Assembly (NCBI GenBank): GCA_039714175.1 | Contig: JBDLJV010000001.1 | Span: 1 to 40,104, forward strand | From: Actinomycetota bacterium | Lineage (GTDB): Bacteria; Actinomycetota; Acidimicrobiia; Spongiisociales; UBA5794 | Reading direction: 5' to 3' | DNA: 40,104 nt | Part shown: one piece after another, positions 20,168-39,042 of the stretch | Layout of the letters: each line of letters opens with the position of its first letter | Numbering within the stretch: position 1 is the stretch's first letter | Translations under genes and position numbers: made by a program | The notes under the pieces: model-generated | Told to the model about the DNA's origin: nothing | The model's input: only the letters and a program-made list of their open reading frames with translations | Databases searched by the model: none

Positions 20168-20168
20168 G

Positions 20169-21689: not shown

Positions 21690-21698
21690 TCGTCGAGA

Positions 21699-22850: not shown

Positions 22851-22867
22851 TAGTCAGATTCTGACTA
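22851..22867. promoter_or_regulatory. AT-rich palindrome TAGTCAG-att-CTGACTA upstream of the BMP transporter operon
   Basis: Exact 7-bp arms about 115-130 nt upstream (minus sense) of the 22736 start. Candidate operator. Confidence 0.35.
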
Positions 22868-22960
22868 GGAGCGGCCGGTCGGATCATCGTGTGGTCTCTC
22901 CCGACGAGCCCGTGGTTGAACTCGCTGAGGATCGCGCGACGGCTTCCTCAAGTGTGTGAT

Positions 22961-22988
22961 GCTGAAACCTGAAACCTGAAACCTCAAC
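22961..22988. repeat. Tandem heptanucleotide array (gctgaaa cctgaaa cctgaaa cctcaac)
   Basis: Four in-phase 7-mers, 12 nt upstream of copy 3 of the 36-nt repeat. Confidence 0.85.
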
Positions 22989-22999
22989 TCCCTCTGCAT

Positions 23000-23035
23000 C
23001 CCCCTCCTGGCTCGCAAGCTCGCCCGTCCTCCCAC
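23000..23035 (+). repeat. 36-nt dispersed repeat, copy 3
   Basis: 35/36 identical to 733-768 (CGCCCGT versus CGCCTGT). Followed by a 6-bp hairpin GTCCTC-n9-GAGGAC, as in copy 2. Confidence 0.9.
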
Positions 23036-23127
23036 AAGGCGAGGACCGTTGGAAAGATGCCTCACCTCGTGGATTGAGGGTGAATGGGGAACTCGGAAGC
23101 GGAAGTGGGAACCGGTAGCCCAAAGCA

Positions 23128-23154
23128 AGAGGGGCCGGCGATGCCGGCCCCTCT
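23128..23154 (-). terminator. Intrinsic-terminator-like hairpin after the uracil permease gene
   Basis: 12-bp GC-rich stem AGAGGGGCCGGC-gat-GCCGGCCCCTCT, 17 nt past the stop (23171). Followed on the minus strand by UGCUUUGGG, a short U-run. Confidence 0.5.
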
Positions 23155-23170
23155 CAGCGTCTGTTGATTG

Positions 23171-24406
23171 CTACTCGACGTCCGGAGCCATTGCGAATTC
23201 GTCCTCTTCTGCCGGTTCCGGCAGAATCAGATTGACGATCACGCCAACGACGGCGGCAAGTGCGAGACCCGAGATCGGCACATCACCGATGGCAAGGGTA
23301 TTGGTAAGACCGCTGACACCAAGACCGAACACGAGGATCAGTCCAACAACGATCATGTTGCGACTCTTCATGAAGTCGACCTGTGCGTTCACCAGTGTCC
23401 TCAAACCGACCGCTGCGATCATTCCGAAGAGAACGATCGACAGTCCGCCAAGTACTGGAACCGGTGTGGTCCTCAGGATGGCGGCCAGTTTCGGAATCAG
23501 GGCAAGCACGATTGCGAAACCCGCACCGATTCGGAGGATGAGCGGGTCGTACACCTTCGTGACGGCCAGCACGCCCGTGTTCTCCGAATACGTCGTGTTC
23601 GGTGGGCCACCGATCAGACCGGCGAACAGCGTCGCGATACCGTCGCCGAGGAGCGTTCGCTCCAGGCCGGGCTCCTCGAAGAAGTCCTTTCCGACAACAC
23701 TGCCGTTGGCCATGATGTCACCGACATGCTCGATCATGGTCACGAACGCGATCGGTGCGATGAGAGCAACCGGTGCCCATGAGATGTCTCCAAAGCCCCA
23801 TGTGAACTCGGGAAGACCGACCCACGCTGCCTCACCGACAGCAGCGAAGCTGAAGTCAGGGAAGAAGATTGCTCCGAGGATGTAGCCGACGACCGCTGCA
23901 GTGAGGATCGGCAGCATCCGGAACAAGCCTTTGAAGAACACCGCCGCAATGACCGCGGTCAGCATCGTGACGAGCGCCAACCACCAGGCACCCTCTGACA
24001 TATTGATGGCGATCGGCGCCAGCGTGATTCCGATGACGATGATGACCGGTCCGGTCACGATCGGCGGGAAAACTCGCTGGATCACTTCGTGACCGACTGC
24101 CGCCACAAGGAGGCTCATCGCGGTGTAGAGGACACCGGCGGCCATGATCCCGAGTCCGATTGCTGCCCACGTGTAGTCACGTTCGGTGGCGAGGATGATC
24201 GCTGGGATGAACGCAAATGACGAACCCAGGAATACCGGCACCATCCGCTTGGTCACAAGGTGGAACAGCAACGTACCAACTCCGGCGGCAAGCAATGCCA
24301 CCGACGGATTGAGTCCTGTCAACAACGGCACAAGGACCGTTGCTCCGAACATGGCCACGACGTGCTGCAAGCCCAGCACCGTCTTCTTTTGCATCGTCAT
24401 TTCCAT
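23171..24406 (-). CDS. NCS2-family uracil/xanthine permease (UraA/PyrP-like)
   Basis: 411 aa from MEMTMQKK, with SD GGAGAGG 8 nt upstream. N-terminal LGLQHVVAMFGATVLVPLLTG is the canonical NCS2 motif. Confidence 0.88.
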   Translation of the reverse strand: MEMTMQKKTVLGLQHVVAMFGATVLVPLLTGLNPSVALLAAGVGTLLFHLVTKRMVPVFLGSSFAFIPAIILATERDYTWAAIGLGIMAAGVLYTAMSLLVAAVGHEVIQRVFPPIVTGPVIIVIGITLAPIAINMSEGAWWLALVTMLTAVIAAVFFKGLFRMLPILTAAVVGYILGAIFFPDFSFAAVGEAAWVGLPEFTWGFGDISWAPVALIAPIAFVTMIEHVGDIMANGSVVGKDFFEEPGLERTLLGDGIATLFAGLIGGPPNTTYSENTGVLAVTKVYDPLILRIGAGFAIVLALIPKLAAILRTTPVPVLGGLSIVLFGMIAAVGLRTLVNAQVDFMKSRNMIVVGLILVFGLGVSGLTNTLAIGDVPISGLALAAVVGVIVNLILPEPAEEDEFAMAPDVE

Positions 24407-24623
24407 AGGGTTTTCCTCTCCCAATCGCGAAGAGAGCCACCCCAATCGAGGTGACTCCCTTTCCTATATGTCGAGCTTGTTGCCCGTACCTGACCCGTAC
24501 CGCTTCCGGTGGCGAAAACTGTCGCGGGCTTGTCATTGATTGATGGTGCAGCAAATAAGCAGCCACCCCCCCTTGTTGCGCTGCCCAGTCTTCGCTGGCT
24601 GCCATCAAGGTATGACAATTAGA

Positions 24624-24971
24624 TCATGCTCCTCTGAACACCATCCCGTAGTAGTTGTCGTACGTCTCTTCACGCACGATCTCGACGCTTCCTTTCACGG
24701 CCATGCCGGCCTTCGGTTCGTCGATGTCGAGTTGCCCCAACATCCGCATCCCGTTCTCCAGCTCGACAATACCAAGTCCGAGCGTCGGAACCTCGTACTG
24801 CGGCGGCAGGTTGTAGACCCGTGTGTAGGTCAACAGCTTGCCGTCCCGCGGAAGCGGAACCGTGTCGAACTCGAAGAAGTCGTTCTGCTTGCAGTTCTTG
24901 CACACCATCCGGAACGGGTAGTGCTCCGTGTCGCACAGGCGGCACTTGTAGGCGTAGATTTCCCGAGCCAT
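24624..24971 (-). CDS. DUF35 OB-fold / zinc-ribbon protein (thiolase-partner family)
   Basis: 115 aa. Cys4 ribbon CRLCDTEHYPFRMVCKNCK followed by an OB-fold-like C-terminus. Its start overlaps the thiolase-like stop (TGATG). Confidence 0.8.
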   Translation of the reverse strand: MAREIYAYKCRLCDTEHYPFRMVCKNCKQNDFFEFDTVPLPRDGKLLTYTRVYNLPPQYEVPTLGLGIVELENGMRMLGQLDIDEPKAGMAVKGSVEIVREETYDNYYGMVFRGA

Positions 24972-26146
24972 CAGGCCTCCTTCTCGAACACGAGACAAAC
25001 AACGTTGTTACCGAAGCCGCCGAAGTTGCAAGTGAATCCAACCTCTGCGTCCTCGACCTGGCGAGCTTCGCCGTCTCCACGCAGCTGGGTCACGATCTCC
25101 CATGCCTGCGCGATACCGGTCGCTCCGACCGGGTGACCGCGGCCCTTGAGACCTCCACCGACATTGATGGGGATCTTGCCACCGAGCGCTGTCTCGCCCT
25201 TCTCGAGAGCGATGTGTCCTTCGCCCTTGGGGAAGAACCCGACCTCTTCGCTCTCGACGATCTCGAGGATCGTGAACGCATCGTGGAGCTCGGCAACGTC
25301 GACGTCTTCTGGCGTCTTGCCCGCCATTGCGAACGCATCGGCTGCAGCCTTGCGAACCGCGAGAAGATCCGTCGGTTCCTCGCGTTCATGAACGGTATGG
25401 GTGTCAGTTGCCTGACCAACGCCGCTCAACTTGATCATCGGTCCACCGAGCTCCTTCGCCTTCTCTTCAGAAACGAGAATGATGGCTGCGCCACCGTCGG
25501 AGACCGGACAAGCATCGAAGAACCGCAGTGGCTCTGCGACGTACGGGTTGTTGGTCATCGCCTCAGGGGAATCAAGGATGCCCTCGAGGGATATCTCTTG
25601 CTGGAGATGTGCCCATTCGTTGTTGAGCGCAGCGTTCTGGTTCTTGACTCCAACCATCGCAAGGTGACGCTCGGTAACCCCGTACTTGTCCATGTAGAGA
25701 CGGGTGAACATCGCAGCGTGCGCCGGAAGTGTCACTCCGTAGATGTACTCGGCGATCGGATGGGTCAGCGTCGCGACGAAATCGGTCGCTTCGAGGCCGT
25801 TGACCTCGCGCATCCGCTCCACACCGGCCACAAGAACGACATCGTCCATTCCGGAAGCAACGGCCTGGTACCCAGCCTTGATCGCAGAGCCGCCAGAAGC
25901 CGGTCCATTCTCGATGGCCGCGGCACCAGCGGGAGTGAGGCTCAGGCTGTCCGCGACGGCACTCGCGAGTGCCGTCTGGTGATTGACCCTGGGGCTTCCC
26001 ATGTTGGCCACATAGACCTGGTCAACCTCTGTAATCCCTGCATCCTTGAGCGCCATCATTGACGCATAGGACGCGATCTCGGACAGCGCGAATTCCAACC
26101 GGGTGAAGGTCGTGATGCCAATACCGGCTACGTAGACGTCACGCAT
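24971..26146 (-). CDS. Thiolase-fold protein (SCP-x/archaeal type) apparently lacking the nucleophilic Cys
   Basis: 391 aa from MRDVYVAGIG. C-terminal thiolase motifs are present (ELHDAFT, GRGHPVGATG, CNFGGFG). The expected [E]xxCASGG nucleophile site reads ENGPASGG, and there is no Cys in the first ~230 aa. Confidence 0.8.
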   Translation of the reverse strand: MRDVYVAGIGITTFTRLEFALSEIASYASMMALKDAGITEVDQVYVANMGSPRVNHQTALASAVADSLSLTPAGAAAIENGPASGGSAIKAGYQAVASGMDDVVLVAGVERMREVNGLEATDFVATLTHPIAEYIYGVTLPAHAAMFTRLYMDKYGVTERHLAMVGVKNQNAALNNEWAHLQQEISLEGILDSPEAMTNNPYVAEPLRFFDACPVSDGGAAIILVSEEKAKELGGPMIKLSGVGQATDTHTVHEREEPTDLLAVRKAAADAFAMAGKTPEDVDVAELHDAFTILEIVESEEVGFFPKGEGHIALEKGETALGGKIPINVGGGLKGRGHPVGATGIAQAWEIVTQLRGDGEARQVEDAEVGFTCNFGGFGNNVVCLVFEKEA

Positions 26147-26897
26147 CCTGCAACCCCTCCTCCATCGCCCAACGCTGCACCATGAGAGCGGATGCGGTCG
26201 GGTCATACTGCGAGCGGGTCGCGGATAGCGGGTCAAGGGCAGGCGTCGGCGGATCCGACGGCGGAAGGATCGCTTCCATGGCCTTGTCGAGAATCTCCGG
26301 TGGAACCGGTCTCCGACCAACGACGAGGCTGGACCTCGCGGCGTCGAACAGCTCACGAGTCAACGCCCATGAGGGGACACCGCCGAGCTCGTGGGGAATC
26401 TCGAATCGCTTCTCGAGTTTGTACTCGATCATCCACCGGCGGAATCCGATCGGTGACTCGGCGACAATCAGGACCTCGTCATGACCGAGCACATCGAAGT
26501 GGTACTCCATCTTCGCCGCGAAGGCATGAGCGCCGATGCGCAGGCCGCGGCGCAGGGCCAGGGTGTGCAACGACAAGCCCAGGTTCGGAGTCACCTGGCG
26601 ACCATTGACAATGGCTGCCAGCTCTCCATCGACCTGCACGGCAAGGACGTACTGGTCCTGGAAACGGTACTGATAGTGAGACAGCAGCTCCGCGTAGACA
26701 CGCGATGCGACGACGTCGTAGTAGTCACGCTCCACGTGTAGCAGCGGCTCGACGTGCTTCAGCAGATCCGGGATCTCATCCCGGTCGACGGCACGAACCA
26801 CGGCTGCCTCACCGCTGGCGAGCAGCATGTACTTCGGTTCGTACGGCGCCATCTCCGAATCGATGGGCCGAAGAATCTTTTCTAGATCAACGGACAT
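26139..26897 (-). CDS. Hypothetical protein, operon-embedded (weak GNAT-like segment)
   Basis: 252 aa with coding-like composition. Starts 2 nt after the CoxL-like stop and has an 8-nt overlap with the thiolase-like start. Only a weak LRRGLRIGAHAF motif-A-like stretch; no family recognised. Confidence 0.65.
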   Translation of the reverse strand: MSVDLEKILRPIDSEMAPYEPKYMLLASGEAAVVRAVDRDEIPDLLKHVEPLLHVERDYYDVVASRVYAELLSHYQYRFQDQYVLAVQVDGELAAIVNGRQVTPNLGLSLHTLALRRGLRIGAHAFAAKMEYHFDVLGHDEVLIVAESPIGFRRWMIEYKLEKRFEIPHELGGVPSWALTRELFDAARSSLVVGRRPVPPEILDKAMEAILPPSDPPTPALDPLSATRSQYDPTASALMVQRWAMEEGLQDA

Positions 26898-26899
26898 TC

Positions 26900-29296
26900 T
26901 CAGTTCGCTCCTTCTGTTGTCTTGGATTTCTCAAGGATCGCCATCGCGACCTTCTCCTGTGTGATCGGCATCGACTTGATGCGGACCCCTAGTGCGTTGT
27001 AAACGGCGTTGGCAATCACCGGTGCAGCTCCGATCATCGTGTGCTCACCCACGCCCCTGGCTCCGAACGGGCCATCGGGCTGTGGCACCTCGACGATGAT
27101 CGGGATGATCTCGTCGGGGATGTCGAAGGCCGTCGGGATCTTGTAGTCGGTGAACGTCGGGTTCATCATCTTCCCGTTCTCGTCGAAGCGCATGTCTTCG
27201 TACAGAACGGTTGCAAGACCCTGGACGAGGCCGCCGGTGATCTGACCGTTCACGAGGTCCGGGTTGATGGCCCGGCCGGCGTCGACGGCCAGCGCTGCCT
27301 TGCGCACCCAGATACGACCTGTGTCCGTGTCGATCTCAAGAACAACACCAGTTGCCCCAACCGTGTAATGCACGTTGGGATGGCCTCCCTGGCCGGTCTC
27401 CGGATCGCTGATCGCGTTCGTGAACTCGGGCATGAACTTGCCGCTGGCAATGATTGGCCCACCGCGCCAGGTTCCTTCCTCGGTCTGGATGCCGTCGATG
27501 ACGAATTCACGCAACGGCTTCGAGAAACTGGCATCGGTTCGACACTTGACTGCTTCGTCCTCGAGGTACAACGAATCATCCTCGAAGCCGTACACCTCGT
27601 GAATGACGTCGAAGATCTTGCCTCTCGCCTCGATGGCTGCCTTCTCGACCGCCAGTCCCGAACTCCATGTGACGTGGCTGGCAACGGTCTGCCATTCGTA
27701 GGGGTTCCGGTCGGTGTCCGGTGTCTCCACCCGGATCTTGTTCACGGGGACGGTGAGGATCTCGCTCGCGATCTGCGCCATGACGGTGAGGTATCCCTGA
27801 CCGAGCTCCATGCCGGACACGGTGATGTTGATGCTGCCGTCCTCGTTGAACTTGAGGAACGAGGCCGATGAGGCGTTCGGCGGCATCGCCGGCGCCTTCC
27901 AGAACAGGGCAAGACCCTTGCCGATCACGGTGTTCGGGTTGTCGGAGGTTTCCTCGACACCCCAGTCGATGGCCGCAGCGGTCTTGTCGATCGCCTCGAT
28001 CATGCCGGACGGATTCATGTGAGCTCCATAGGCGAGCTCGTCACCCTCAACGATCGCGTTCTTGCGTCGGAAATCGACCGGGTCCATCCCGATTGCCTCG
28101 GCGATTCGATCCATGTGTGACTCAAGCCCGAAATGGAATTCGGAGTACCCGAAGCCACGGTACGGACCACCCGGGGGGAGATTCGTGTAGATGCACAGCG
28201 AGTCATTGGTGATGTTGGGCACACGGTACGGGCCGGTGGCCGACAGGCCAGCGGCGTTGACGACGTTGGCGCCGTACTCGACATATGCCCCGGCATCCCA
28301 GTAGAGCTTGTGCTCAACGGCCGTTAGTGTGCCGTCGTTCATGACACCGACCTTGAGCTCGGCGACGACGCCCTGGCGCTGATAGGTGTTGTAGAACTCC
28401 TGCTCCCTGGTCCAGCGCAGCTTGACCGGCCGGCCCTTCACGAGCGTCGCCATGGCAGCACCGAGGATCTCCATGGAGACACCGGCTTTCCCGCCGAATC
28501 CACCGCCGACGTACGGCGTGATCACGCGAACGTCCTTGTGGGTGAAGCCCAGAGGTGCGAGCGCTTCGGCAAACAGGTGGCGCTGCGTATGCGGTGATTG
28601 GGATGCAGTCCAGACCGTGAGCCGATCTGACTGATCGAGTCGGCTGACCGTCACGTGCGGTTCGATGGCGCAGTGCGCGTAGCGCGGCACGTGGTAGGTG
28701 TCTTCGAGCACGTAGTCGGCCTCGGCGAAGGCCTTCTCAGTGTCGCCCTTCCGGATCTTCCTCCAGTGGGCGATGTTCGTGTCGTCCTGTGGGAAGAACC
28801 AGGGGACATGGACATACTCATCGAGGTCGGGATGGACCAGTTCGGCACCGTCGGCGACTGCACTCCTCGGGTCGAGAAGCGGCTCCAGGACCTCGTACTC
28901 GACCTCAATGAGCTTGGCTGCGTGCACAGCGTCGCGATGGCTCCTCGCGATGACACCAGCCACTTGCTCGCCCACGAAACGGACGTGGTTCTGAGCGAAG
29001 ATGTAGCGATCCTCCATGTACATGCCGAACTTGTATGGGAAGTCCGCGCCGGTGGCAACCCGCACAACGCCCGCTGCCGCCTCGGCCTTGGACGTGTCGA
29101 TGGAGACGATCTTCGCGTAGGCGTGAGGGCTCTCGACGATGGCAGCGTGCAGCAACCCGGGCCCAAAATCGATATCGTCGACGAATTGCGCGGCACCGCT
29201 GATCTTGTCGAGACCGTCGATCCTGACGGCCGGCTTGCCGACTGTCTTGAGATCGTCGGTGCTCTTTTCGACCTCGAAGGGATACTCGGTCGTCAT
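26900..29296 (-). CDS. XDH/aldehyde-oxidase-family molybdopterin-binding large subunit (CoxL-like); candidate uracil/thymine dehydrogenase
   Basis: 798 aa from MTTEYPF. VGGGFGGK motif and GVGE catalytic-Glu context (ARGVGEHTMIGAAPVIANAVYNALG). ATGA overlap with the FeS subunit gene. The substrate assignment is inference from context. Confidence 0.88.
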   Translation of the reverse strand: MTTEYPFEVEKSTDDLKTVGKPAVRIDGLDKISGAAQFVDDIDFGPGLLHAAIVESPHAYAKIVSIDTSKAEAAAGVVRVATGADFPYKFGMYMEDRYIFAQNHVRFVGEQVAGVIARSHRDAVHAAKLIEVEYEVLEPLLDPRSAVADGAELVHPDLDEYVHVPWFFPQDDTNIAHWRKIRKGDTEKAFAEADYVLEDTYHVPRYAHCAIEPHVTVSRLDQSDRLTVWTASQSPHTQRHLFAEALAPLGFTHKDVRVITPYVGGGFGGKAGVSMEILGAAMATLVKGRPVKLRWTREQEFYNTYQRQGVVAELKVGVMNDGTLTAVEHKLYWDAGAYVEYGANVVNAAGLSATGPYRVPNITNDSLCIYTNLPPGGPYRGFGYSEFHFGLESHMDRIAEAIGMDPVDFRRKNAIVEGDELAYGAHMNPSGMIEAIDKTAAAIDWGVEETSDNPNTVIGKGLALFWKAPAMPPNASSASFLKFNEDGSINITVSGMELGQGYLTVMAQIASEILTVPVNKIRVETPDTDRNPYEWQTVASHVTWSSGLAVEKAAIEARGKIFDVIHEVYGFEDDSLYLEDEAVKCRTDASFSKPLREFVIDGIQTEEGTWRGGPIIASGKFMPEFTNAISDPETGQGGHPNVHYTVGATGVVLEIDTDTGRIWVRKAALAVDAGRAINPDLVNGQITGGLVQGLATVLYEDMRFDENGKMMNPTFTDYKIPTAFDIPDEIIPIIVEVPQPDGPFGARGVGEHTMIGAAPVIANAVYNALGVRIKSMPITQEKVAMAILEKSKTTEGAN

Positions 29297-29760
29297 TCGG
29301 AACCCTCCTTGCCAGCCGCAAGCACGGCATCGATGATCGGCTCGTACCCGGTGCAGCGGCAGAGATTGCCTGCAAGCGCTTCCTGTACGTCGTGGCGAGT
29401 CGGATCGGGGTTGTTCTCCAGCAACTCGGTGGCAGACAGGACGATGCCCGGGGCACAGAACCCGCATTGGAACGAGTTGTTCTCGATGAACAGGTTCTGG
29501 AGTTCGCTGAGGCCCTCGTAGCTGATGCCTTCCACCGTGGTCACCTCGCGACCATCAGCTTCCACGGCGAGCACGAGACAACTGCGCACGGAGCGGCCGT
29601 CGAGGACGACAGTGCACGAACCACAGTCGCCACGCTCGCACCCGATCTTCGGACTCTTCGTTCCGATCCGCTCCCTGAGCACGTCGAGCAACGTGTCCGC
29701 CGGGGCAACGTCGAGGCCCCAGTCTTCACCATTGACTTTGATGTTGAGATTCATCGTCAT
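29293..29760 (-). CDS. (2Fe-2S)-binding small subunit of XDH-family dehydrogenase (CoxS-like)
   Basis: About 155 aa. Plant-type cluster CERGDCGSCTV and a second cluster QCGFCAPG...CRCTGY. Start is 29760 or 29754. Confidence 0.9.
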   Translation of the reverse strand: MTMNLNIKVNGEDWGLDVAPADTLLDVLRERIGTKSPKIGCERGDCGSCTVVLDGRSVRSCLVLAVEADGREVTTVEGISYEGLSELQNLFIENNSFQCGFCAPGIVLSATELLENNPDPTRHDVQEALAGNLCRCTGYEPIIDAVLAAGKEGSE

Positions 29761-29764
29761 CCTC

Positions 29765-30649
29765 TCAGACAAGCCGTGTGCCGTAGTCGGGACCCTTGCC
29801 GGCAAGTCTCTCGGTCGCTGCTACCAATCCGCGCCCCAGCATCACTTCGGTCATGTGGTTGCGATACTCCGCTGACGCTCGCATATCGGTGATCGGACTG
29901 ATCTCGTCACGGACCATCGCTACAGCCTCGGCGATGAGGTCACCGTCGAGCGACTTGCCTCGGAGAGTGTCCTCGATGCGAGCGGAACGGATCGGTGTGG
30001 GGGCGACGGCACCGAAAGCAATGCGGTACTCGTTGTCCGGGTAGGCAAGTATGCCCACCGAAGCCTGGGCCAGGTCTTCGCCTCCGTAGCGCATGAGCTT
30101 GACATAGACCCCGCCGTGTGAGCCGAGGTCGATGGTGAGATGCGAAACGATCTCGTCCTCCGACAAAGCGGTCTCGCGCAGGCCCACGAACCAGTCCTTG
30201 ATATCGACGCTGCGGGCACCGTCGGGTCCGATGAGATGCACCACTGTGTCATAGACGAGCAGCACAGGTCCGGCATCACATGAAGGGACTGCCGAGCAGA
30301 TGTTGCCGACCACAGTTGCCCGGTTCCTGATTCCACCGGAGGCCACAGTGTCGGCCATCTCTGCCAGAAGCGGGGCATGTTCGTTGACGATCTCGGATTC
30401 GATGATGTCGGTGAACGTCACCAGTGAACCGATGTGAAGGGTGTCACCATCCATCGTGAGATCGTTGAGCCCCGGCACATTCTTGATATCGACAACAAGA
30501 TCCGGGGCGATGGCATCGTCGCGCATCCACGCCACGAGATCGGTGCCACCAGCAAGGATCTGCGCGGAACCGGTGTGGTCCGAGAGGATCCCGATGGCCT
30601 CCTCCAGCGTGTCGGGACGCTGATACTCGAAGTTACGGGCGATCACCAT
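29765..30649 (-). CDS. FAD-binding medium subunit of XDH-family dehydrogenase (CoxM-like)
   Basis: 294 aa. N-terminal FEYQRP...ILAGGTDL FAD-binding PCMH motif. SD GGAGG upstream. Confidence 0.9.
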   Translation of the reverse strand: MVIARNFEYQRPDTLEEAIGILSDHTGSAQILAGGTDLVAWMRDDAIAPDLVVDIKNVPGLNDLTMDGDTLHIGSLVTFTDIIESEIVNEHAPLLAEMADTVASGGIRNRATVVGNICSAVPSCDAGPVLLVYDTVVHLIGPDGARSVDIKDWFVGLRETALSEDEIVSHLTIDLGSHGGVYVKLMRYGGEDLAQASVGILAYPDNEYRIAFGAVAPTPIRSARIEDTLRGKSLDGDLIAEAVAMVRDEISPITDMRASAEYRNHMTEVMLGRGLVAATERLAGKGPDYGTRLV

Positions 30650-30746
30650 CGCAGACCTCCTCTGCCCCCTGAAATCGAAACCTTGATTCTCGCACTTCGT
30701 CCGTCAATGGTTCGCTGCCCGAGACAACCGTGCGTGCGCCACCAAT

Positions 30747-32153
30747 TCATTGCAGCGTCTCCGCCAGCGCATTGACTCCATCCACGAAACACTCCATGGG
30801 TGCCTCGACCAGACCCGCGCCGACCATGCCGGTGCCCGGGACCTTGCCGGCAACACCGGTGTTGATCTGCGGCCGAACGCCGGCCCGCACGACCCTTGTG
30901 GCATCGATACCAACCGGTGTCCCACGGAACTCGAGCATCGGGATCTGATAGGCCGGGTGCTCGGCCATCGTGATCTCGTACATTGCGAGCGTCCTGGTCA
31001 CGGCTCCAGCGGCCGTTCCACCGACGAACCCCACAATTGCGGGTGCTGCAGCCATTGCGAGGCCTCCAAGACCAACCGTCTCGGTGATCGTCGAGTCTCC
31101 TATGTCCGGACTGGCGTCATCTTCGGTGAAGGATCCGAGGTAGAGACCGTCAACCGGCGGGGCAGGGGCGATGAACCAGCGATCCCCCGTTCCGGAGAGC
31201 CGGACTCCGAAGTCGGTACCGTTGCGGGCCATCACCGTGACGAGGCTCGACCCGGCCACTCCGGACGCGGCATCGGATCCAAGCTTGCCAGAGGCCATGA
31301 CAAGGTTGAGCATGAAGTGGTCGTTGCCATCGATGAAGTCGTACACGGCCCGGCGTTGGCCGAGCGGTGCGTCGGCTCCATCGATGAGTGCTCCGCTGAT
31401 CTCGCGAAGGAAGAGCGATGTCACCGCTCGGTTTCGGTTGTGTCCGTCATCGCCCATCTGAAGCGCCTGGGCGATCAACGACTGGAGATCTATCGGTCCG
31501 GTGCTCTTGAGGGTGGCTGCGAGCACCGGACCGAGAACCTCATCCATCCAATGGAGCCGATCGATAGCTTCGGGAGCGAAGGCGCCATATCGAAGCACCT
31601 TCCCGAGTCCTTCGTTCAATGTTGAGTAGGACACGCCGTCTCCGGCGGCGTCCTTGACGACCGCAATCGGCATCGACGGCGATGTCACCCCAGCCATCGG
31701 GCCGACGGCGCCGTGATGGTGGCAAGGGGATAGGTCGATGAGGCCGTCTGCGGCCTTCGCCGCGGCGTCGTCGGGATCATCTGCAAGTCCCTCGTAGAGC
31801 ATCGCCCCGATGATCGCTCCCCTCATCGGGCCGCTTGCCCGTTCCCACGTCAATGGCGGACCGGCGTGGAGGAAGGTCCGCTCCGTCATTGAGGGGAACA
31901 CGTCACGGGCCACGCTGACATCAACGAGCTGTGGCCGCACGGCCAGCATGCGCTTGATCGCGACCTCGTTCGCATCCCGCATTCGGTCATCTGCGAACAA
32001 GATTGCGAGAGCGTCTTCGCTTCCGGCGGCTGGTGGACGCCAGTCGGCTCGCTCGACAGCGGAGCCCTGTTGCTCGATCGACGTGGCAAGCATGTCGGTA
32101 CCTGCGGTCGCGACCACCGGTTCCGTGTCGAGCAGTTGTCCGAGATCGCTCAT
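30747..32153 (-). CDS. DUF1116 protein (YlbE/AllG-like)
   Basis: 468 aa from MSDLGQ. ATGA overlap with the FdrA-like stop. SPCHHHGAVGPMAG segment and its position next to FdrA and DUF2877 match the ylbE family. Confidence 0.75.
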   Translation of the reverse strand: MSDLGQLLDTEPVVATAGTDMLATSIEQQGSAVERADWRPPAAGSEDALAILFADDRMRDANEVAIKRMLAVRPQLVDVSVARDVFPSMTERTFLHAGPPLTWERASGPMRGAIIGAMLYEGLADDPDDAAAKAADGLIDLSPCHHHGAVGPMAGVTSPSMPIAVVKDAAGDGVSYSTLNEGLGKVLRYGAFAPEAIDRLHWMDEVLGPVLAATLKSTGPIDLQSLIAQALQMGDDGHNRNRAVTSLFLREISGALIDGADAPLGQRRAVYDFIDGNDHFMLNLVMASGKLGSDAASGVAGSSLVTVMARNGTDFGVRLSGTGDRWFIAPAPPVDGLYLGSFTEDDASPDIGDSTITETVGLGGLAMAAAPAIVGFVGGTAAGAVTRTLAMYEITMAEHPAYQIPMLEFRGTPVGIDATRVVRAGVRPQINTGVAGKVPGTGMVGAGLVEAPMECFVDGVNALAETLQ

Positions 32154-33580
32154 GATGAAGTCCTTGTCGTTGCCAGGCGTGCTGCGTACAAGGCAGCCTC
32201 CGCGTTGGACAGGTGCACAGATGCACCAGCGTCGTTGAGGGCCTTTGCCTGGGTGTCGCGTCCCTGCGGATCTCCGCTCGTCCCACACAGTGAAACGACG
32301 ACGGCCACTCCGGAGTCGACAACGCGCTCGACGATGGGGGCGAGTTCGGCAGCCGGATTGGCATTGGCGCCATAGCCGAGGACAACGTCCATGAGGACCA
32401 CGCCGACCGATTCGTCGTGGGCGACGGCTGCGAGTCGCTCGACCCGCACGGTCTGGTCGATCATCGGATGGGCTCTTCCCTGCGTGTATTCATCATCGCC
32501 GTAGTCGATGAAGGTGTGTCCCTCGTCTTCCTCGCGGGTTCCGATCTCGCCGAGCTGCGGACCAGCCACATGACGCGCTTCGGAACGCAGCGTGCCGCCG
32601 GAGAACAGTCCACGGACGAATCCGGAACGGTGCTCCTGTTGGGGGGCTTCCCATGAACCGTACGTCGGCCTGGCCTGACCGAGAGCATCCAGCACCTCGC
32701 CTGCGCCTTCCTCGAGCGTGGTCTCCCCCATGAATGTGATCACGACAGGTGTGGCGCACTCTGCGGCGACGCGGCGCACCTGGTCTGCAACCGGTGCGGC
32801 CGGAGGCTTCGAGATGACAACAATCAGCTCGGTTCCCGGATCAGCGTCGAGCGCTTCGAGTGCTTGGAGCGTCGAGATGGCCCCAACGTCTTCGGAGAGA
32901 TCATGGCTTCCCGTGCCGAGCGCATGTCGAACACCAACGCCGGCGTCATCGAGCAACGCGCACATCTCCTGTATGCCGGTACCTGATGCGCCCACCATGC
33001 TCACCGGACCTGGCTGCACTGCATTGGCAAATCCGAGACCGATGCCGCTCACGATCGTCGTGCCGCAATCGGGGCCCATCACGAGGAGATTGTGTTGCGC
33101 GCCGTATCGCTTGAGTGCGACTTCCTGGGAAATGGGGACGTTGTCGCTGAAGATCATCACATGGAGACCATCCTGGAGTGCCTCCATGGCTTCGACATAG
33201 GCGTGCTCCCCGGGAACCGACAGCAGAGCGACGTTGGCGCCGTTGATCTCGGCTGCAGTGCCCACAGTCTTCGCATCGGGTGCGTTCATCCCGCCCGAGC
33301 GGACCATCTTCGGGGTGAGCGCTTCTTCGAGAACCGCATGCGCATGAGCGATTGCCTCTTCGTTCTCGGCATGGACAGCGAGCAGCAGGTCGTTGGGTCC
33401 AACGCCGACGACAGAATCCATGTCGAAGTCCATGTCGGCAAGCAGGCTGAGATTGAGCTCAGTGGCCATCGCCACCAGAGCGTCGGTGACGCCTTCAACA
33501 CCTTGGAGTGCCTTGCTTGCTTGCATCAGCCGAACCGAATCGTGATAGCGGCCGGGGTGTACCTCAACTCGCGAGATCAT
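32150..33580 (-). CDS. FdrA-family protein (AllF-like; succinyl-CoA-synthetase-alpha/CoA-ligase fold)
   Basis: 476 aa. N-terminus MISRVEVHPGRYHDSVRLMQASK parallels the E. coli FdrA N-terminus. Rossmann/CoA-binding-like repeats. ATGA overlap with the DUF2877 stop. Confidence 0.8.
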   Translation of the reverse strand: MISRVEVHPGRYHDSVRLMQASKALQGVEGVTDALVAMATELNLSLLADMDFDMDSVVGVGPNDLLLAVHAENEEAIAHAHAVLEEALTPKMVRSGGMNAPDAKTVGTAAEINGANVALLSVPGEHAYVEAMEALQDGLHVMIFSDNVPISQEVALKRYGAQHNLLVMGPDCGTTIVSGIGLGFANAVQPGPVSMVGASGTGIQEMCALLDDAGVGVRHALGTGSHDLSEDVGAISTLQALEALDADPGTELIVVISKPPAAPVADQVRRVAAECATPVVITFMGETTLEEGAGEVLDALGQARPTYGSWEAPQQEHRSGFVRGLFSGGTLRSEARHVAGPQLGEIGTREEDEGHTFIDYGDDEYTQGRAHPMIDQTVRVERLAAVAHDESVGVVLMDVVLGYGANANPAAELAPIVERVVDSGVAVVVSLCGTSGDPQGRDTQAKALNDAGASVHLSNAEAALYAARLATTRTSS

Positions 33581-34425
33581 CGTGCGCCTCCAGTGAGAGA
33601 TGAAACAGATCGACCACCGAGGACGATCCCTGCGGCGAGCGCAGGTCCCGAGCTGTGTCCGACGGCAAGTAGATCGCGATGGCTGGCCCGGATGTCTCCG
33701 CGCCCGGCAACAGCTCGGAGGAACGCCGCGGCGGGGAGTGCCACGTTCCCCTTCAGGGCGTGGTCGATCAGGGCGGCCGAGAACGTGGTGGTTCGCTGTC
33801 GTGCCAGCGACGAGATTTCGAGAGAGGTCGCATCGAGCGTCTGCATAAGTCGACGATCTCCGACCGCTTCGCCGAACAACCGCAGGGCAGAGAGAACTCC
33901 GGCCAGGTAATCGTCACCTTCGGGTGTCAGACCTTCACCTCTGCCAATGAGCATCGATGCAGCCGCAACAAGACCGGCTGGTGAGTCTGTGGCCGGGATG
34001 GCGTCGAGTGGCATGCCATCCACGGTTGATGGCAGGTCGACGATCGACTCGGCAATCCGGGCTCGATCGAGAGTCGGTAACGCTGGTCGGGGATCCCACC
34101 ACCGGACGGCGTCGATCGTCAGCCCGTCGAGCATGACCTGACCGATTCCGACGGTGGCCGGTGAGCCATGCTCGATCGAACCGAAGACATTGGCCTCGGC
34201 GTCGGCGGCCACCTCAACACTGTTCGGAAGCCGGGTCGCATCCCGGGTCGATACGACGACGACACCACCGCCGTCCAGGAGGAGCCAGACGGCGTGGCTC
34301 GCCGATCCCACCACCGTTGCCGATGCGTGTGAATCAGACAGCTCAGAGCGGAGCGCGGCACTCGCCACCCCCGGCATCCGAACGGATACCGGGGACGATC
34401 GAGTTTCGACCGCTCTGACGGTCAT
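33577..34425 (-). CDS. DUF2877 protein (YlbF/AllH-like)
   Basis: 282 aa. Family-typical GLTPEGDDYLAG and VGHSSGPALAAG motifs. Starts 6 nt after the amidohydrolase stop. Confidence 0.75.
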   Translation of the reverse strand: MTVRAVETRSSPVSVRMPGVASAALRSELSDSHASATVVGSASHAVWLLLDGGGVVVVSTRDATRLPNSVEVAADAEANVFGSIEHGSPATVGIGQVMLDGLTIDAVRWWDPRPALPTLDRARIAESIVDLPSTVDGMPLDAIPATDSPAGLVAAASMLIGRGEGLTPEGDDYLAGVLSALRLFGEAVGDRRLMQTLDATSLEISSLARQRTTTFSAALIDHALKGNVALPAAAFLRAVAGRGDIRASHRDLLAVGHSSGPALAAGIVLGGRSVSSLTGGAR

Positions 34426-34431
34426 CTACTG

Positions 34432-35529
34432 CTATCCGAGATCGACGATCGCGGCAACCGGACCGCCACCGCTCGGGCCTTGGTGGATTGCTGCAACAGA
34501 CACGAACACAGCGGCATCGTCGATCGCGTTGGCTACGACGCCACCCACGGCGGCTTTGATGTGGCGATGGTGGTGCACGTCGGAATCGTCCAGGGCGACC
34601 TGCCGGCGGCCCCTCAGGCGTGAGGTCGGATCAGCTTCGCACTTGACGAAGACGTTCACGACCTTGCCATCGAGATCATCGGAGTTCGCCCGATCCGGAA
34701 GATCGAGACCTGCCGAGCGGATCGCCCGGTATACGCCTTCGCGGTCGAGAGCATCGTTCATCACATCGTGACCGATGCGATACCGGCCACCGGCACCGCG
34801 TACGTTGCCGACGACGACGGTCTGTGCTCGGTCAAGTTCGACACCCGACGAGCAGGACGCTACCGAGGAGAACAGGCTGAGATCGTGACCGATCTGTTCG
34901 GCTGTCGGCATCTCGATCTCGCCGAGGGCTACGGCGATGCCGAGCCCGGATGTGCCGTTCGAGATGTTCATCGACTCGAGCGGATCCTCGGTGTAGACGG
35001 TGTGACCGCGTTCCTTGGCATCGTTGATCGTATCCATGACGAGCAGCGGGGTCTTCGTCTGCACGTAGTGGACGTCAGCGGCATCTTCGATGCCTGCGGC
35101 TGCCATTGCGCGGCGGACTCCTTCGGCGACCTTGGCGACCATCGCCGGCCGTCCGATGTCCTCCGGCAGAATGACGTCGCTCATCGCGTAGCCAACAGCC
35201 AGGCGGGGTTCGTCGGATACAGGGCCGTCATCGGGAACGTTGGCAAAGACGGTGGCGTGCGGACACAGAATGCCGTCCGTGCCACCCGACCACACCATGG
35301 GAATGTCGTCAACCTCGGACTGCGGTCTCGTCCCCTTCTCCATCAGAACCTTGCGGAATGCCTGATCCGCGATGATCCTGGTGAAGTCGTTGACACCACC
35401 GTTGCCTTCGGTCTTGCCAACTACGGCGACAACGCCATCGGCGTCGAAGACTCCCTCGTCGATCAGTGCTGCGAGCCCGGATGCATCTCCGACGCTCTCA
35501 AGTACGACCTTGCGTACGTCAACGGCCAT
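34432..35529 (-). CDS. Ring-opening amidohydrolase, AtzD/TrzD/barbiturase family (barbiturase favoured by context)
   Basis: 365 aa from MAVDVRK, with SD GGAGG 7 nt upstream. Family motifs [58 protein letters not shown] and HQGPSGGGP. Confidence 0.88.
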
Positions 35530-35582
35530 GGTCCTGCCTCCTACTGTCCGGATGGAATCGAGAATATCCCAATCGAACCTCG
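35530..35582. promoter_or_regulatory. 53-bp divergent control region (amidohydrolase operon / pucR-like gene) carrying CCCAATCGA and GGAATCGA motifs
   Basis: CCCAATCGA at 35568-35576 and AATCGA at 35556-35561. The same 9-mer recurs in the uracil permease 5' UTR (24441-24449; variant at 24420-24428). Confidence 0.4.
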
Positions 35583-37184
35583 ATGGCATTAGGGTATGTT
35601 GCCGTGACTTCACACAGTTCATTGTCATATTCCCACAAGGGAGAAGAGCTCACTCTCCGCGATGTGCTGAAGACTCCTGGCTTCCAGGGCACTGAGGTGT
35701 TGGCGGGTGCCGGCGGGCTTGACAGAGTCGTCTCCTCGATCAATGTCATGGAGAATCCGGACATCATCCCGTGGGTCAAGAATCGGGAATTGTTGATCAC
35801 GGTGGGCTACTCACTTGCCGGGCGGACGAAGGATCTGGCAGCGCTCGTCGAAGACCTGGCTGATCAAGACCTGGCAGGGTTCGGGGTCAAGCTCGGCCCC
35901 TATGTGACCGAGGTCGGCAAGGACGCACTCGATGCTGCGAATCATCGCGATTTCCCGATCCTCTCACTTCCCCCAACAGTGTCTTTCGACGATCTGATCG
36001 CTGACGTCTACGGCGCTCGGGACTCTCTCCTCCTTGGAGGCCTCCACCGACGAAGTGACCGGGAGCACGAACTCATTGGAGTCGCCCTCGAAGGCGGGGG
36101 CCCCGGCGAAGTTGCCGCCAGGCTTGCTCAGCTCGTGAACTGTGAGGTCCTCATCCTGGGTGCGGGCAATGAGATCATGTCGCACCACCCGGACCCCGAG
36201 CATGTCGCCAGGGAGGACCACGATCCGCGCACCGATCCGCGCTTCGAGGAGGCTGCTGCTGCACCCATCGTGTTCGGCTCGACCTACGTCGGCCAGCTCT
36301 ATGTGCTCCCGAACGAAGGATCGTCTGAGGAGTTCTCCCCCGGCCTTGTCCCGGCATGCGCGCAGATCATGGCTCTCGCAGCCTCAAGGGAGATCGCTGT
36401 CGCCTCGGTGGACCGCCAGTTTCGGGATGAGCTCCTCGAGCAGATCCTTCGCAATCGTCTCGATCGCCGAGAGGTGGATCGCCGCTGCCAAGCGCTTGAG
36501 TGGGCGATCCGTTTCCCAGCGGTCATCGTGACCCTTACGCCCGCGGATCTCGACTCCACCCCACATCTCGAACGGGCGCGAGACGCCCTGGGCTGGTCGC
36601 TTCGAGCCAGGGGCCTCCATGCCCCCCACGCGATCATCAACGGCAACGTCGTTGCCGTCGTTGGGAGTGGCGATCTGCCGGATGCCGATCCGGAGGCAAC
36701 AGCAGTGTCGGCAGCGGCCGAGGTCATCTCCCGATCGGTACCGGGAACGTGGTCCGGTGGCGTCTCAGGCGGCGTAGGGAACCCAACGGAGCTGCAGAGA
36801 GGTTGGGACCAGGCACAGACGGCGACCCGAGTGACGCAAGCAATCAAGGGAGTTGGCGTCGTCGGCAAGTTCACGGAGCTCGGTGTCTTCCGGATTCTCG
36901 CCGAGGTTGACCGGGGCGTGTTGGCGGGTTTCGCAAAGGAGACACTCGGCGAACTGCACGAACCCACGGAGAGCCGTGCCGAACTCAGACGTACGCTCGC
37001 AGTTCTTCTGGCCACGAATCTGAATGTGGCAGAGACAGCCAGGCAATTGCACTACCACTACAACTCGGTTCGCTACAGGATGAACCAACTCGAGCAACTG
37101 CTCGGGCCGTTCTCCACCGATCCGACACGCCGGCTCGAACTCCACATCGCTCTCCTCATCGGCGACATGGATCCAAACGACTGA
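35583..37184 (+). CDS. PucR-family transcriptional regulator
   Basis: About 533 aa. N-terminal PucR-like [39 protein letters not shown] and C-terminal Puc[33 protein letters not shown]. The start is uncertain: ATG 35583 has no SD, and GTG 35604 or TTG 35622 are alternatives. Confidence 0.85.
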
Positions 37185-37272: not shown

Positions 37273-39042
37273 ATGGCGAACTACACACCTCCCGTACGAG
37301 ACATCACCTTCACCCTCGACACGATCGCTGACATCGATTCGATCATCTCGCTCCCCGGATTCGAGCACGTTGACCCGGAGATGACCGAAGGAGTCCTCGA
37401 CGAAGCCGCCCGCTTCTTCTCCGAGGTATTCGCACCCACGAACGAGGTTGGGGATGAGAAGGGCGCCGTGCTCGTCGACGGCAATGTGATCACACCTGCC
37501 GAGTTCAAGCCCGTGTGGGACAAGCTCATCGAGGCCGGCTGGACGGCGGTCACCGGCACCCCCGAATACGGCGGCCACGGATTCCCCAAGACCATTGGCA
37601 TGACGATCTCAGAGATGATGACGTCTGCCAACCTGGCCTTCTCACTCAATCCAATGCTCACCGGCAGTGGCATCACCCTCCTCACACGCCACGGAAGCGA
37701 CGAACTGCGCGATCAGTATCTGGAGAAACTCATCTCAAGCGAGTGGACCGGGACAATGGTGCTCACCGAGGCAGAGGCAGGATCCGACGTCGGAGCTGTT
37801 CGGACGAAAGCCGTCAAGAATGATGACGGGACCTACACGATCAGCGGCACGAAGATCTTCATCACGTGGGGAGACCACGACCTGACCGACAACATCATCC
37901 ACCTCGTGCTTGCACGAACCCCGGATGCCCCTGTCGGGACGAAGGGCATCTCCCTCTTCGTTGTGCCGAAGTTCCTCCTCAACGAGGACGGCACGCCAGG
38001 CGATCGCAACGCTGTTGAGACCGTCTCCATTGAGCACAAGCTCGGGATCCATGCAAGCCCGACCTGCGTTCTGTCCTTCGATGATGCAACCGGCTTTCTG
38101 GTCGGCGAGGAGAACCAGGGCATGCGCTACATGTTCACGATGATGAACCAGGCGCGCCTCGAGGTCGGCTTGGAGGGACTCTCGGTAGCTGAGCGCGCCT
38201 ACCAGCACGCTGCTGAGTACGCGAAGGATCGCGTCCAGGGCCGCGTTCCCGGATCGCACGATCCGGCAAGGATCATCGATCATGCCGACGTCCGACGGAT
38301 GCTCATGACGATGAAGGCCTACACCGAGGCAATGCGTGCCCTCGTGTACGACGCTGTTGCAGCTGAGGACCGCATGCACAACTCCCCGGACGAGGCGATT
38401 CGCACCGCGGGAAGTGAACGCCTTGCACTCCTGACCCCGATCGCGAAGTCATGGTGTACGGACAGAGGAGTCGAGGTTGCTTCGATCGGCGTTCAGGTCC
38501 TCGGCGGCATGGGATTCATCGAGGAATCCGGGGCTGCGCAGTTCTACCGGGACGCACGGATCACCCCCATCTACGAAGGAACAAACGGAATCCAGGCGCT
38601 CGATCTCGTCATGAGAAAGCTCCCGATGCGTGACGGTGCGGTCATCGACGAGTATCTGACCGAGATCGAATCGCTTGATGGACCACTGGCATCAGTGGAG
38701 GAACTCTCAGATCTCCGTGACCAGCTGTCCCAGGCCACGGCAGCCGTCCGTCGGGCAACCGAGTGGTTGAACGGCTCGGAAGATGTGCAGGCAAGGATGG
38801 CGGGAGCCACCCCCTATCAGGAGATGCTCAGCACGCTGGCCGGCGGCTACTACCTGGCACGACTGGCACTGGCGGCACTTCCGGACGCAGAGACAGACCC
38901 GTGGATGGCGGCGAAGGTCGCCACAGCCCGGTTCTATGCAGTGAACCTCCTGCCAAAGGTGCACGGCCTTGTCGCTGGCGTGACCGATGGCCCCGACCTC
39001 CTCTTTGCCGTCGATGACGCGCAACTCGGAGCGTCTGCGTGA
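37273..39042 (+). CDS. Long-form acyl-CoA dehydrogenase (about 590 aa, FadE type with C-terminal extension)
   Basis: 589 aa. ACAD N/M/C domains (GTKIFITWGDHD, YRDARITPIYEGTNGIQALD). Confidence 0.88.
   Translation: MANYTPPVRDITFTLDTIADIDSIISLPGFEHVDPEMTEGVLDEAARFFSEVFAPTNEVGDEKGAVLVDGNVITPAEFKPVWDKLIEAGWTAVTGTPEYGGHGFPKTIGMTISEMMTSANLAFSLNPMLTGSGITLLTRHGSDELRDQYLEKLISSEWTGTMVLTEAEAGSDVGAVRTKAVKNDDGTYTISGTKIFITWGDHDLTDNIIHLVLARTPDAPVGTKGISLFVVPKFLLNEDGTPGDRNAVETVSIEHKLGIHASPTCVLSFDDATGFLVGEENQGMRYMFTMMNQARLEVGLEGLSVAERAYQHAAEYAKDRVQGRVPGSHDPARIIDHADVRRMLMTMKAYTEAMRALVYDAVAAEDRMHNSPDEAIRTAGSERLALLTPIAKSWCTDRGVEVASIGVQVLGGMGFIEESGAAQFYRDARITPIYEGTNGIQALDLVMRKLPMRDGAVIDEYLTEIESLDGPLASVEELSDLRDQLSQATAAVRRATEWLNGSEDVQARMAGATPYQEMLSTLAGGYYLARLALAALPDAETDPWMAAKVATARFYAVNLLPKVHGLVAGVTDGPDLLFAVDDAQLGASA

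Follow-up and report, generated by a model that had tools for sequence, protein, structure and literature searches.

Results

A barbiturase cluster with a predicted non-hydrolytic later step

A ten-gene cluster in the metagenome-assembled genome of an uncultured member of the Acidimicrobiia (Actinomycetota bacterium, assembly GCA_039714175.1) represents a previously undescribed variant of the oxidative pyrimidine pathway. It lies on the minus strand at 24624–35529 of contig JBDLJV010000001.1, positions 1 to 40,104, the 40,104-nucleotide stretch that was analysed and that we call the window. We lean towards the view that the cluster degrades uracil or thymine via barbiturate, with a phosphorolytic step in place of the hydrolytic ureidomalonase. 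Every step is read here from sequence, structural models and gene context. A search of full-text literature returned no paper that ties barbiturase to AllFGH or describes this pathway, and no gene assignment for uracil/thymine dehydrogenase or ureidomalonase; to our knowledge, barbiturase is the only enzyme of the oxidative route to which a gene has been assigned. In the Rhodococcus erythropolis route, as it is cited in PMC3758960 (Soong et al. 2001/2002), uracil/thymine dehydrogenase, barbiturase and ureidomalonase lead to urea and malonate.

The ten genes, in 5′ to 3′ order, are the following.

34432–35529, minus strand: barbiturase (AtzD/TrzD/Bar ring-opening amidohydrolase), 365 residues; PF09663 Amido_AtzD_TrzD, E 7e-143
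33577–34425, minus strand: AllH-like subunit (formerly DUF2877); PF11392, E 7e-22
32150–33580, minus strand: AllF/FdrA-like subunit; Ligase_CoA and CoA_binding, PRK06091 FdrA at 405 bits
30747–32153, minus strand: AllG-like subunit (formerly DUF1116); PF06545, E 1e-88
29765–30649, minus strand: flavin adenine dinucleotide (FAD) subunit of a Mo-hydroxylase; FAD_binding_5 and CO_deh_flav_C
29293–29760, minus strand: 2x[2Fe-2S] subunit of the Mo-hydroxylase; Fer2_2 and Fer2
26900–29296, minus strand: molybdopterin (Mo) subunit of the Mo-hydroxylase, a candidate uracil/thymine dehydrogenase; Ald_Xan_dh_C and MoCoBD_1/2
26139–26897, minus strand: GNAT-fold protein of an unnamed family, 252 residues; AlphaFold2 model with predicted local distance difference test (pLDDT) 86 and predicted template-modelling score (pTM) 0.80
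24971–26146, minus strand: thiolase-fold protein without the nucleophilic Cys; Thiolase_N and Thiolase_C_1
24624–24971, minus strand: DUF35 partner (OB-fold plus CxxC...CxxC zinc ribbon; OB_ChsH2_C); PF01796, E 4e-8, and zf-ChsH2

The ring-opening enzyme is of the barbiturase type

The product of gene 1 matched its family over the full length (TIGR02714, 509 bits against a cutoff of 153). Among all sequences in the Protein Data Bank (PDB), its best match was 5hwe, the crystallized Rhodococcus barbiturase, at 525 bits and 68% identity, compared with 317 bits for the best cyanuric acid hydrolase. Five positions split barbiturase (Asn194, His324, Lys328, Val348 and Ser/Ala349) from AtzD (Arg, Thr, Arg, Gly and Gly) (PMC3758960). 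Aligned to Rhodococcus Bar, the gene 1 product carries all five barbiturase-type residues (N191, H321, K325, V345 and A346), whereas R, T, R, G and G stand at these positions in the cyanuric acid hydrolase 5t13. From bit scores and signature residues, the measures by which the ring opener was assigned, gene 1 is predicted to encode a barbiturase (EC 3.5.2.1; group VI of Peat et al. 2013) and no cyanuric acid hydrolase, in keeping with the original prediction, which had weighed these two activities against each other. Its homologues number at least 120 proteins, all at least 86% identical among the matches listed.

The NCBIfam model NF052395, named ‘cyanuric acid amidohydrolase’, also accepts the gene 1 product, at 452 bits against a cutoff of 360. 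It accepts the characterized Rhodococcus barbiturase as well, at 478 bits against the same cutoff; the model therefore takes in true barbiturases and does not separate the two activities, and its name carries no weight. Automatic annotation is likely to mis-name barbiturases through NF052395. A cyanuric acid hydrolase identity for gene 1 was ruled out on the barbiturase-type residues together with this lack of discrimination.

The same score could be taken to point to a cluster that scavenges nitrogen from s-triazines (cyanuric acid, triuret and biuret), in which gene 1 would encode a cyanuric acid hydrolase and the trio of AllFGH-like proteins would phosphorolyse a carbamoyl-urea, for example biuret or allophanate, the more so as AllFGHK homologues stand beside the biuret and triuret genes biuH and trtA in nitrifiers (PMC12625717). 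We regard this as highly improbable: the residues are Bar-type and not AtzD-type, the Rhodococcus barbiturase scores higher on the model than gene 1 does, hydrolases for biuret and allophanate are absent, and a Mo-hydroxylase and nucleobase or nucleoside importers would have no role in cyanurate catabolism.

An AllFGH-like trio may cleave ureidomalonate by phosphorolysis

Genes 2–4 encode, side by side, the three subunit families of a characterized enzyme of Escherichia coli. The AllH-like protein is 32% identical to YlbF/AllH, in the C-terminal 113 residues, the AllF-like protein 39% identical to AllF over 492 columns, and the AllG-like protein 44% identical to YlbE/AllG; Pfam now names DUF2877 and DUF1116 as AllH and AllG, subunits of oxamate carbamoyltransferase. 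Purified E. coli AllFGH (oxamic transcarbamylase) interconverts oxalurate plus phosphate and carbamoyl phosphate plus oxamate, and is encoded with a catabolic carbamate kinase, AllK (Kim & Kim 2024, PMC11326118). The trio in the window is predicted to carry out the same chemistry, the phosphorolysis of an N-acylurea to carbamoyl phosphate and an amide. It differs in its gene order (H-F-G instead of F-G-H), in having neither an adjacent allK nor allantoin genes, and in its AllF, which at 476 residues is without about 60 C-terminal residues of the 555-residue E. coli protein. The upstream enzyme is a barbiturase, which makes ureidomalonate, and not oxalurate, the predicted substrate.

Oxalurate is N-carbamoyl-oxamate, and ureidomalonate (N-malonylurea) is oxalurate plus one CH2. 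Given this resemblance and the AllFGH homology, the simplest prediction is phosphorolysis of ureidomalonate. We hold with moderate confidence that the trio would split it into carbamoyl phosphate and malonamate; the moderate support comes from homology to a characterized enzyme, substrate analogy, gene context and the carbamate kinase linkage described below. The original prediction had noted that no amidase-type ureidomalonase was present, which is borne out among the cluster genes, and that six genes in its place formed a combination known from no described pyrimidine pathway. For three of the six this no longer stands, as they are of the AllFGH oxamic transcarbamylase type (PMC11326118); for the GNAT-fold, thiolase-fold and DUF35 genes, which are without a described pathway, it does.

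The AllF-like protein keeps CoA_binding and Ligase_CoA domains and matches succinate–CoA ligase alpha models, so the trio might instead be a coenzyme A (CoA)-dependent enzyme resembling succinyl-CoA synthetase. Such an enzyme would thiolyse N-malonylurea to malonyl-CoA and urea, or act as a CoA ligase on malonate or malonamate, and would leave the resulting CoA ester to the GNAT-fold, thiolase-fold and DUF35 proteins. The CoA-related folds of these three downstream genes fit this alternative, as does the lack of a carbamate kinase in the window. We judge it unlikely. The match to the SucD models runs only to model position 237 of 291; neither urease nor urea carboxylase turned up among the window genes that were scanned; the gene found most often beside barbiturase is that for carbamate kinase; and the sole characterized homologue (PMC11326118), for which the assay used carbamoyl phosphate and oxamate, is a transcarbamylase that depends on phosphate.

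Carbamate kinase as the most frequent barbiturase neighbour

The comparison set comprised 80 barbiturase loci on contigs from one genome per species, onto each of which the window proteins were mapped; 53 of them, in which barbiturase is flanked on each side by 5 kb or more, made up a well-covered subset. In high-GC loci, genes were called by a choice based on G+C at third codon positions (GC3), as greedy longest-ORF (open reading frame) calling gave antisense artefacts. Carbamate kinase was sought by tblastn in the window and in the barbiturase loci.

In 43 of the 80 loci, barbiturase was preceded on its own strand, at a distance of 30–230 nt, by a carbamate kinase gene (locus L037, for example, has carbamate kinase at 8982–9944 and barbiturase at 9989–11095); two further loci had such a gene at another position. 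The Spirillospora gene directly upstream of barbiturase, an AA_kinase match, scored above the cutoff of PRK12352 (277 against 266 bits) and shares 44% identity with E. coli AllK. AllF/G, carbamate kinase or both occurred in 50 of the 53 well-covered loci (AllF/G in 23, carbamate kinase in 36, both in 9). Carbamate kinase is thus the commonest barbiturase neighbour, and its position speaks for a connection of barbiturase with carbamoyl phosphate.

The nearest relatives of the window are Acidimicrobiia metagenome-assembled genomes (MAGs), and the neighbourhood is conserved among relatives, a point on which the original prediction had been staked. Twelve loci from Acidimicrobiia (L002, L003, L006, L009, L013–L017, L029, L032 and L061) show the ten genes in the same order, with barbiturase identities from 94% down to 73%; L006 and L016 show only the first part of the order, since the contig or the fetched flank ends early. 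Three other Acidimicrobiia loci (L007, L010 and L011) have barbiturase and allH-allF-allG followed by unrelated genes (APH-like kinase, dienelactone hydrolase), with neither the xanthine dehydrogenase (XDH)-family genes nor the three-gene GNAT-fold cassette within 10 kb. Beyond these, barbiturase occurs with AllF/G, XDH-family genes and a nucleobase permease in Geodermatophilus, Blastococcus, a Dormibacteraeota MAG (L027), an Acidimicrobiaceae MAG (L056) and a Nanopelagicales MAG (L062), where AllF/G are 44–58% identical to those of the window and arrangements differ widely.

A Mo-hydroxylase is a candidate uracil/thymine dehydrogenase

The three subunits encoded by genes 5–7 make up a complete Mo-hydroxylase of the xanthine oxidase family, predicted to be catalytically competent: the Mo subunit has the molybdenum cofactor motif GGGFGGK at residue 264 and the catalytic Glu in GVGE at 748–751, and the CSFR active-site loop of carbon monoxide dehydrogenase is absent from its sequence. 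The plausible dehydrogenase of the original prediction is upheld by these residues. The scores stay below every equivalog cutoff (XdhA, 508 against 780 bits; XdhB, 193 against 310; XdhC, 169 against 217), and on this measure the enzyme does not qualify as a xanthine dehydrogenase proper (XdhABC/PucCDE). By sequence, the best structural relative of the Mo subunit is 4-hydroxybenzoyl-CoA reductase; it is also 67% identical to the Mo subunit of three Caldisericota loci described below. Uracil or thymine as the substrate of this candidate dehydrogenase rests on the adjacent barbiturase and on an NCS2 permease encoded nearby.

The genes flanking the cluster are as follows.

23171–24445, minus strand: NCS2 nucleobase permease (uracil-permease-like); Xan_ur_permease, E 1e-86
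18174–22802, minus strand: Bmp-type (nucleoside-type) ABC importer, comprising a binding protein, an ATPase and two permeases; Bmp, ABC_tran and 2x BPD_transp_2
17725–18174, minus strand: CDA-fold deaminase, 149 residues; TadA-type model at 56.6 bits against a cutoff of 150
35466–37184, plus strand: divergent PucR-family regulator; PucR, GGDEF_2 and HTH_30

The permease, first read as a uracil permease, belongs to the NCS2 family (333 bits, above the cutoff of the family model); the uracil permease model PRK10720 is its best specific match, at 327 bits against a cutoff of 477, so that the family holds and the uracil-specific name is left below threshold. The start of the deaminase gene overlaps the stop of the ABC permease gene. 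This protein had been called a cytosine deaminase; the CDA fold is confirmed and the specific identity is not, as it falls below any equivalog cutoff. A nucleoside ABC importer and a divergent PucR were both recovered as described. PucR is the likely regulator of the cluster, and the true pucR start probably lies between ~35583 and 35664. The barbiturase–pucR intergenic region (35552–35632) contains two imperfect inverted repeats, GAATATCCCAAT/ATTGTCATATTC and ATGGAATCGAG/CTCGATGGCAT, which are putative operators. On the 3′ side of pucR, at 37273–39818 on the plus strand, stand an acyl-CoA dehydrogenase gene with an Acyl-CoA_dh_C extension and then a gene for a HAD-family hydrolase.

A PucR-family regulator, XDH-family subunits whose best NCBIfam names are XdhA, XdhB and XdhC, and homology to AllFGH could together also describe a cluster for purines, allantoin and oxalurate, in which the Mo enzyme would be a dehydrogenase of the xanthine or urate type, AllFGH would be a true oxamic transcarbamylase working on oxalurate, and the AtzD-family enzyme would open a ring derived from a purine. 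This is very unlikely in our estimation. The window is without uricase, allantoinase, allantoate amidohydrolase and ureidoglycolate dehydrogenase, genes of a kind that flank E. coli allFGHK, and no allB, allC, allD or allE-type genes leading from allantoin to oxalurate were found among the window genes scanned. The XDH scores lie far under the equivalog cutoffs, the barbiturase signature is complete, and the permease is closest to uracil permease.

A GNAT-fold, thiolase-fold and DUF35 cassette

The last three genes form a cassette that is a new, phylogenetically wide protein module. The 252-residue protein, an unknown in the original prediction, has no sequence match in Pfam, NCBIfam or the PDB (the last gave only a spurious match to IF-1, E 0.42), so it still belongs to no named sequence family; a fold can now be seen in a model. 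The final AlphaFold2 model was built from a diverse alignment, an earlier shallow alignment (at least 70% identity) having given a pLDDT of only 63. All of the top 50 Foldseek matches to this model in the PDB were GNAT acyltransferases (E 3.5e-6 to 1.9e-4), with target-normalised template-modelling scores of ~0.5–0.6 except for three much longer multidomain chains. As modelled, the protein has a GNAT fold, with conserved S109 and H111 on the strand ahead of a partly conserved CoA loop. Its family is small, with 156 representative clusters among 1.8e9.

The thiolase-fold protein is most like archaeal-type thiolases, namely 7yvy (272 bits, its best PDB match) and 6esq. It has ENGPASG in place of EAACASG, a Cys-to-Pro replacement, and keeps the GHP histidine in GHPVGATG. 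The replacement is common to 10 of 10 Acidimicrobiia orthologues with a near-full-length match and is found in every thiolase-fold gene that adjoins a GNAT-like relative (L088, L093 and L098–L101). A canonical thiolase (acetyl-CoA C-acetyltransferase) was rejected on this ground: with Pro for the nucleophilic, acyl-accepting Cys of the CxS motif, the protein cannot act as a thiolase. The earlier call of a thiolase fold therefore survives, on the Thiolase_N/C domains and the GHP His, without thiolase activity.

In the archaeal complex of thiolase and 3-hydroxy-3-methylglutaryl-CoA (HMG-CoA) synthase, DUF35 serves as a scaffold and an unfavourable step is coupled to a favourable one. Like that complex and the steroid aldolases Ltp2/Sal with DUF35 (PDB 6esq/6et9 and 6ok1; PMC12329534, PMC12960953), the cassette sets an archaeal SCP2-type thiolase-fold protein beside DUF35 and a third partner, and its overlapping genes suggest that the three proteins form a complex. 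It differs in its third partner, which is a GNAT-fold protein and neither HMG-CoA synthase nor a hydratase, and in that the Cys is Pro in every member examined, so that neither a thiolase nor the described aldolase set-up can be assumed.

The cassette, or its GNAT-like gene, recurs far from the Acidimicrobiia. Caldisericota loci L088–90 have GNAT-like (52% identity), thiolase-fold (53%) and DUF35 (42%) genes in the order seen in the window, together with AllF, AllG, AllH and XDH-family genes. They contain no AtzD-type barbiturase and hold two Cyclase-family (PF04199) hydrolases of 263 and 545 residues, which may have taken over ring opening as non-orthologous substitutes. Loci L084–86, of Nitrososphaerales archaea, combine XDH-family, GNAT-like and AllF/G/H genes with a Bmp ABC transporter and a cytosine-deaminase-like amidohydrolase. 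In Hadesarchaea and others (L087, L093–95 and L098–102), the three-gene cassette stands alone.

GNAT-like genes also adjoin MmdA-type carboxyltransferase genes, in Coprothermobacterota, Hadarchaeaceae and one Nitrososphaerales MAG. In the first two lineages, biotin carrier and Na+-pump decarboxylase subunits accompany the pair, so that the GNAT-fold relatives stand directly upstream of MmdA-type, biotin carrier and OAD beta/gamma genes of the kind found in the MmdABCD Na+-translocating (methyl)malonyl-CoA decarboxylases. Two barbiturase loci have carboxyltransferase genes with no biotin carrier seen nearby: L056 has the order GNAT-like, Carboxyl_trans (540 residues) and barbiturase at 7616–11101, and L027 has a Carboxyl_trans gene after the XDH-family and carbamate kinase genes at 17354–18892. 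These recurrent neighbours pair the GNAT-like protein with (methyl)malonyl-thioester families, and its standing beside Mmd genes indicates a (methyl)malonyl-thioester as a shared intermediate. From uracil and thymine one would expect just these acyl groups, malonyl and methylmalonyl. The window itself has none of the MmdABCD genes; the Cys-less thiolase-fold and DUF35 genes occupy that position. It is speculative, by analogy, that the three proteins form a CoA-dependent module that converts a C3 amide, and our confidence in any mechanism for this final module is low.

Layout of the cluster

The ten ORFs within 24624–35529 all have ATG starts, most of them behind a GGAGG-like ribosome-binding site. 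The gene limits and all nine junctions agree with the original prediction, and the family calls made there for the named proteins hold throughout in profile searches (Pfam and NCBIfam). The junctions, all on the minus strand, are listed here.

34426–34431, minus strand: barbiturase/AllH, 6-nt gap
33577–33580, minus strand: AllH/AllF, ATGA overlap
32150–32153, minus strand: AllF/AllG, ATGA overlap
30650–30746, minus strand: AllG/FAD subunit, 97-nt gap
29761–29764, minus strand: FAD/2Fe-2S subunits, 4-nt gap
29293–29296, minus strand: 2Fe-2S/Mo subunits, ATGA overlap
26898–26899, minus strand: Mo subunit/GNAT-fold, 2-nt gap
26139–26146, minus strand: GNAT-fold/thiolase-fold, 8-nt overlap
24969–24973, minus strand: thiolase-fold/DUF35, TGATG overlap

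The TGATG overlap places the DUF35 gene at 24624–24971. We set the start of gene 1 at 35529, rather than taking the longer ORF from 35628, because an identical 365-residue protein is on record and homologues have the same length. The ten genes may form one transcript, although the 97-nt gap could carry an internal promoter. Across the 12 orthologous loci, the corresponding allG–xdh gap ranges from −1 to 124 nt and is poorly conserved in sequence; many of these gaps (L002–L061) hold a TAnnnT-like hexamer (TAAGAT, TAGGAT or TAGTTT) ~30 nt before the xdh start, which suggests such a promoter. The window’s own gap is without a clear copy of the hexamer and has no Rfam match.

G+C content is ~61% across the window, with no compositional break at the cluster. 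A promoter and terminator scan of 17000–36500 gave counts not above those in shuffled sequence, no tRNAs were found in the window, and Rfam, run over the whole window, gave no match inside the cluster. Its only match was a S-adenosylmethionine (SAM) riboswitch (RF00162, 70 bits) at 477–559 on the plus strand, 5′ of a B12-dependent methionine synthase gene at 843–4298.

Discussion

The pathway that we propose would begin with the NCS2 permease and the Bmp-type ABC importer taking up bases and nucleosides, and the CDA-fold deaminase may convert cytosine or cytidine. The three-subunit Mo-hydroxylase would hydroxylate C6 to give barbiturate or 5-methylbarbiturate, barbiturase would open the ring to ureidomalonate, and the AllH/AllF/AllG-like complex would move the carbamoyl group to phosphate, leaving carbamoyl phosphate and (methyl)malonamate. 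Carbamoyl phosphate would then yield ATP through carbamate kinase or enter arginine or pyrimidine synthesis. The C3 branch, which is speculative and is drawn from folds and recurrent gene neighbours, would see the GNAT-fold subunit form (methyl)malonyl-CoA from (methyl)malonamate, an uphill step pulled by decarboxylation at a partner, with acetyl-CoA (or propionyl-CoA), CO2 and NH3 as end products. Homology, specificity residues and gene context provide a good basis for the predicted transport, oxidation and ring opening. The barbiturate route first proposed for the cluster thus keeps its core (Bar-type ring opener, Mo-hydroxylase and no amidase), with corrections to other genes.

With the Rhodococcus pathway the cluster would share an orthologous barbiturase with the same specificity residues, an adjacent Mo/FAD/FeS hydroxylase and nearby pyrimidine uptake genes. 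It differs in having an AllFGH-type transcarbamylase and no ureidomalonate hydrolase, with the CoA-related three-protein module added, and its predicted products are carbamoyl phosphate and malonamate instead of urea and malonate.

Several observations weigh against this scheme. The urea and malonate reported from Rhodococcus show that hydrolytic cleavage exists in nature. The nitrifier AllFGHK homologues beside biuret genes leave the substrate range of the family open. A tblastn search of the window and the Acidimicrobiia loci gave no carbamate kinase, which is a gap in the argument: the kinase would have to be encoded elsewhere, or carbamoyl phosphate put to direct biosynthetic use. In Streptosporangiales, carbamate kinase and barbiturase occur without AllFGH or XDH-family genes within 10 kb, and XDH subunits linked to barbiturase in other lineages are only 28–44% identical to those of the window. 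For the C3 branch, the CoA loop of the GNAT-fold protein reads RRGLRIGA where the canonical form is Q/R-x-x-G-x-G/A, with Arg for the central Gly. We know of no GNAT-fold precedent for the thiolysis of an ordinary amide by CoA, a reaction that is uphill. In some genomes the cassette occurs away from any pyrimidine genes, and its substrate therefore need not be malonamate.

Carried through to its end, the scheme would be an energy-conserving pathway. It would draw carbamoyl phosphate from the acylurea bond and convert (methyl)malonamate to acetyl-CoA or propionyl-CoA without ATP, by means of a new three-subunit complex in which the GNAT-fold protein forms the malonyl thioester and the DUF35-scaffolded, Cys-less thiolase-fold protein decarboxylates it. 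This complex would be widespread in Acidimicrobiia, Caldisericota, Hadarchaea and Nitrososphaerales, and exchangeable elsewhere with MmdA-type carboxyltransferases or Na+-pumping decarboxylases. We offer this fuller version tentatively, as possible yet doubtful.

The oxidative route is the least understood pathway of pyrimidine degradation, and the cluster gives candidates for its dehydrogenase and for a replacement of ureidomalonase. If AllFGH-type phosphorolysis is true of the cluster, the breakdown of pyrimidines would deliver ATP or carbamoyl phosphate in place of urea, which would explain why carbamate kinase is the commonest barbiturase neighbour in actinobacteria, and the AllFGH family, so far with one substrate, would come to cover a class of N-acylureas. 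Environmental Acidimicrobiia commonly carry the genes, and the pathway may matter for the turnover of nucleobase nitrogen.

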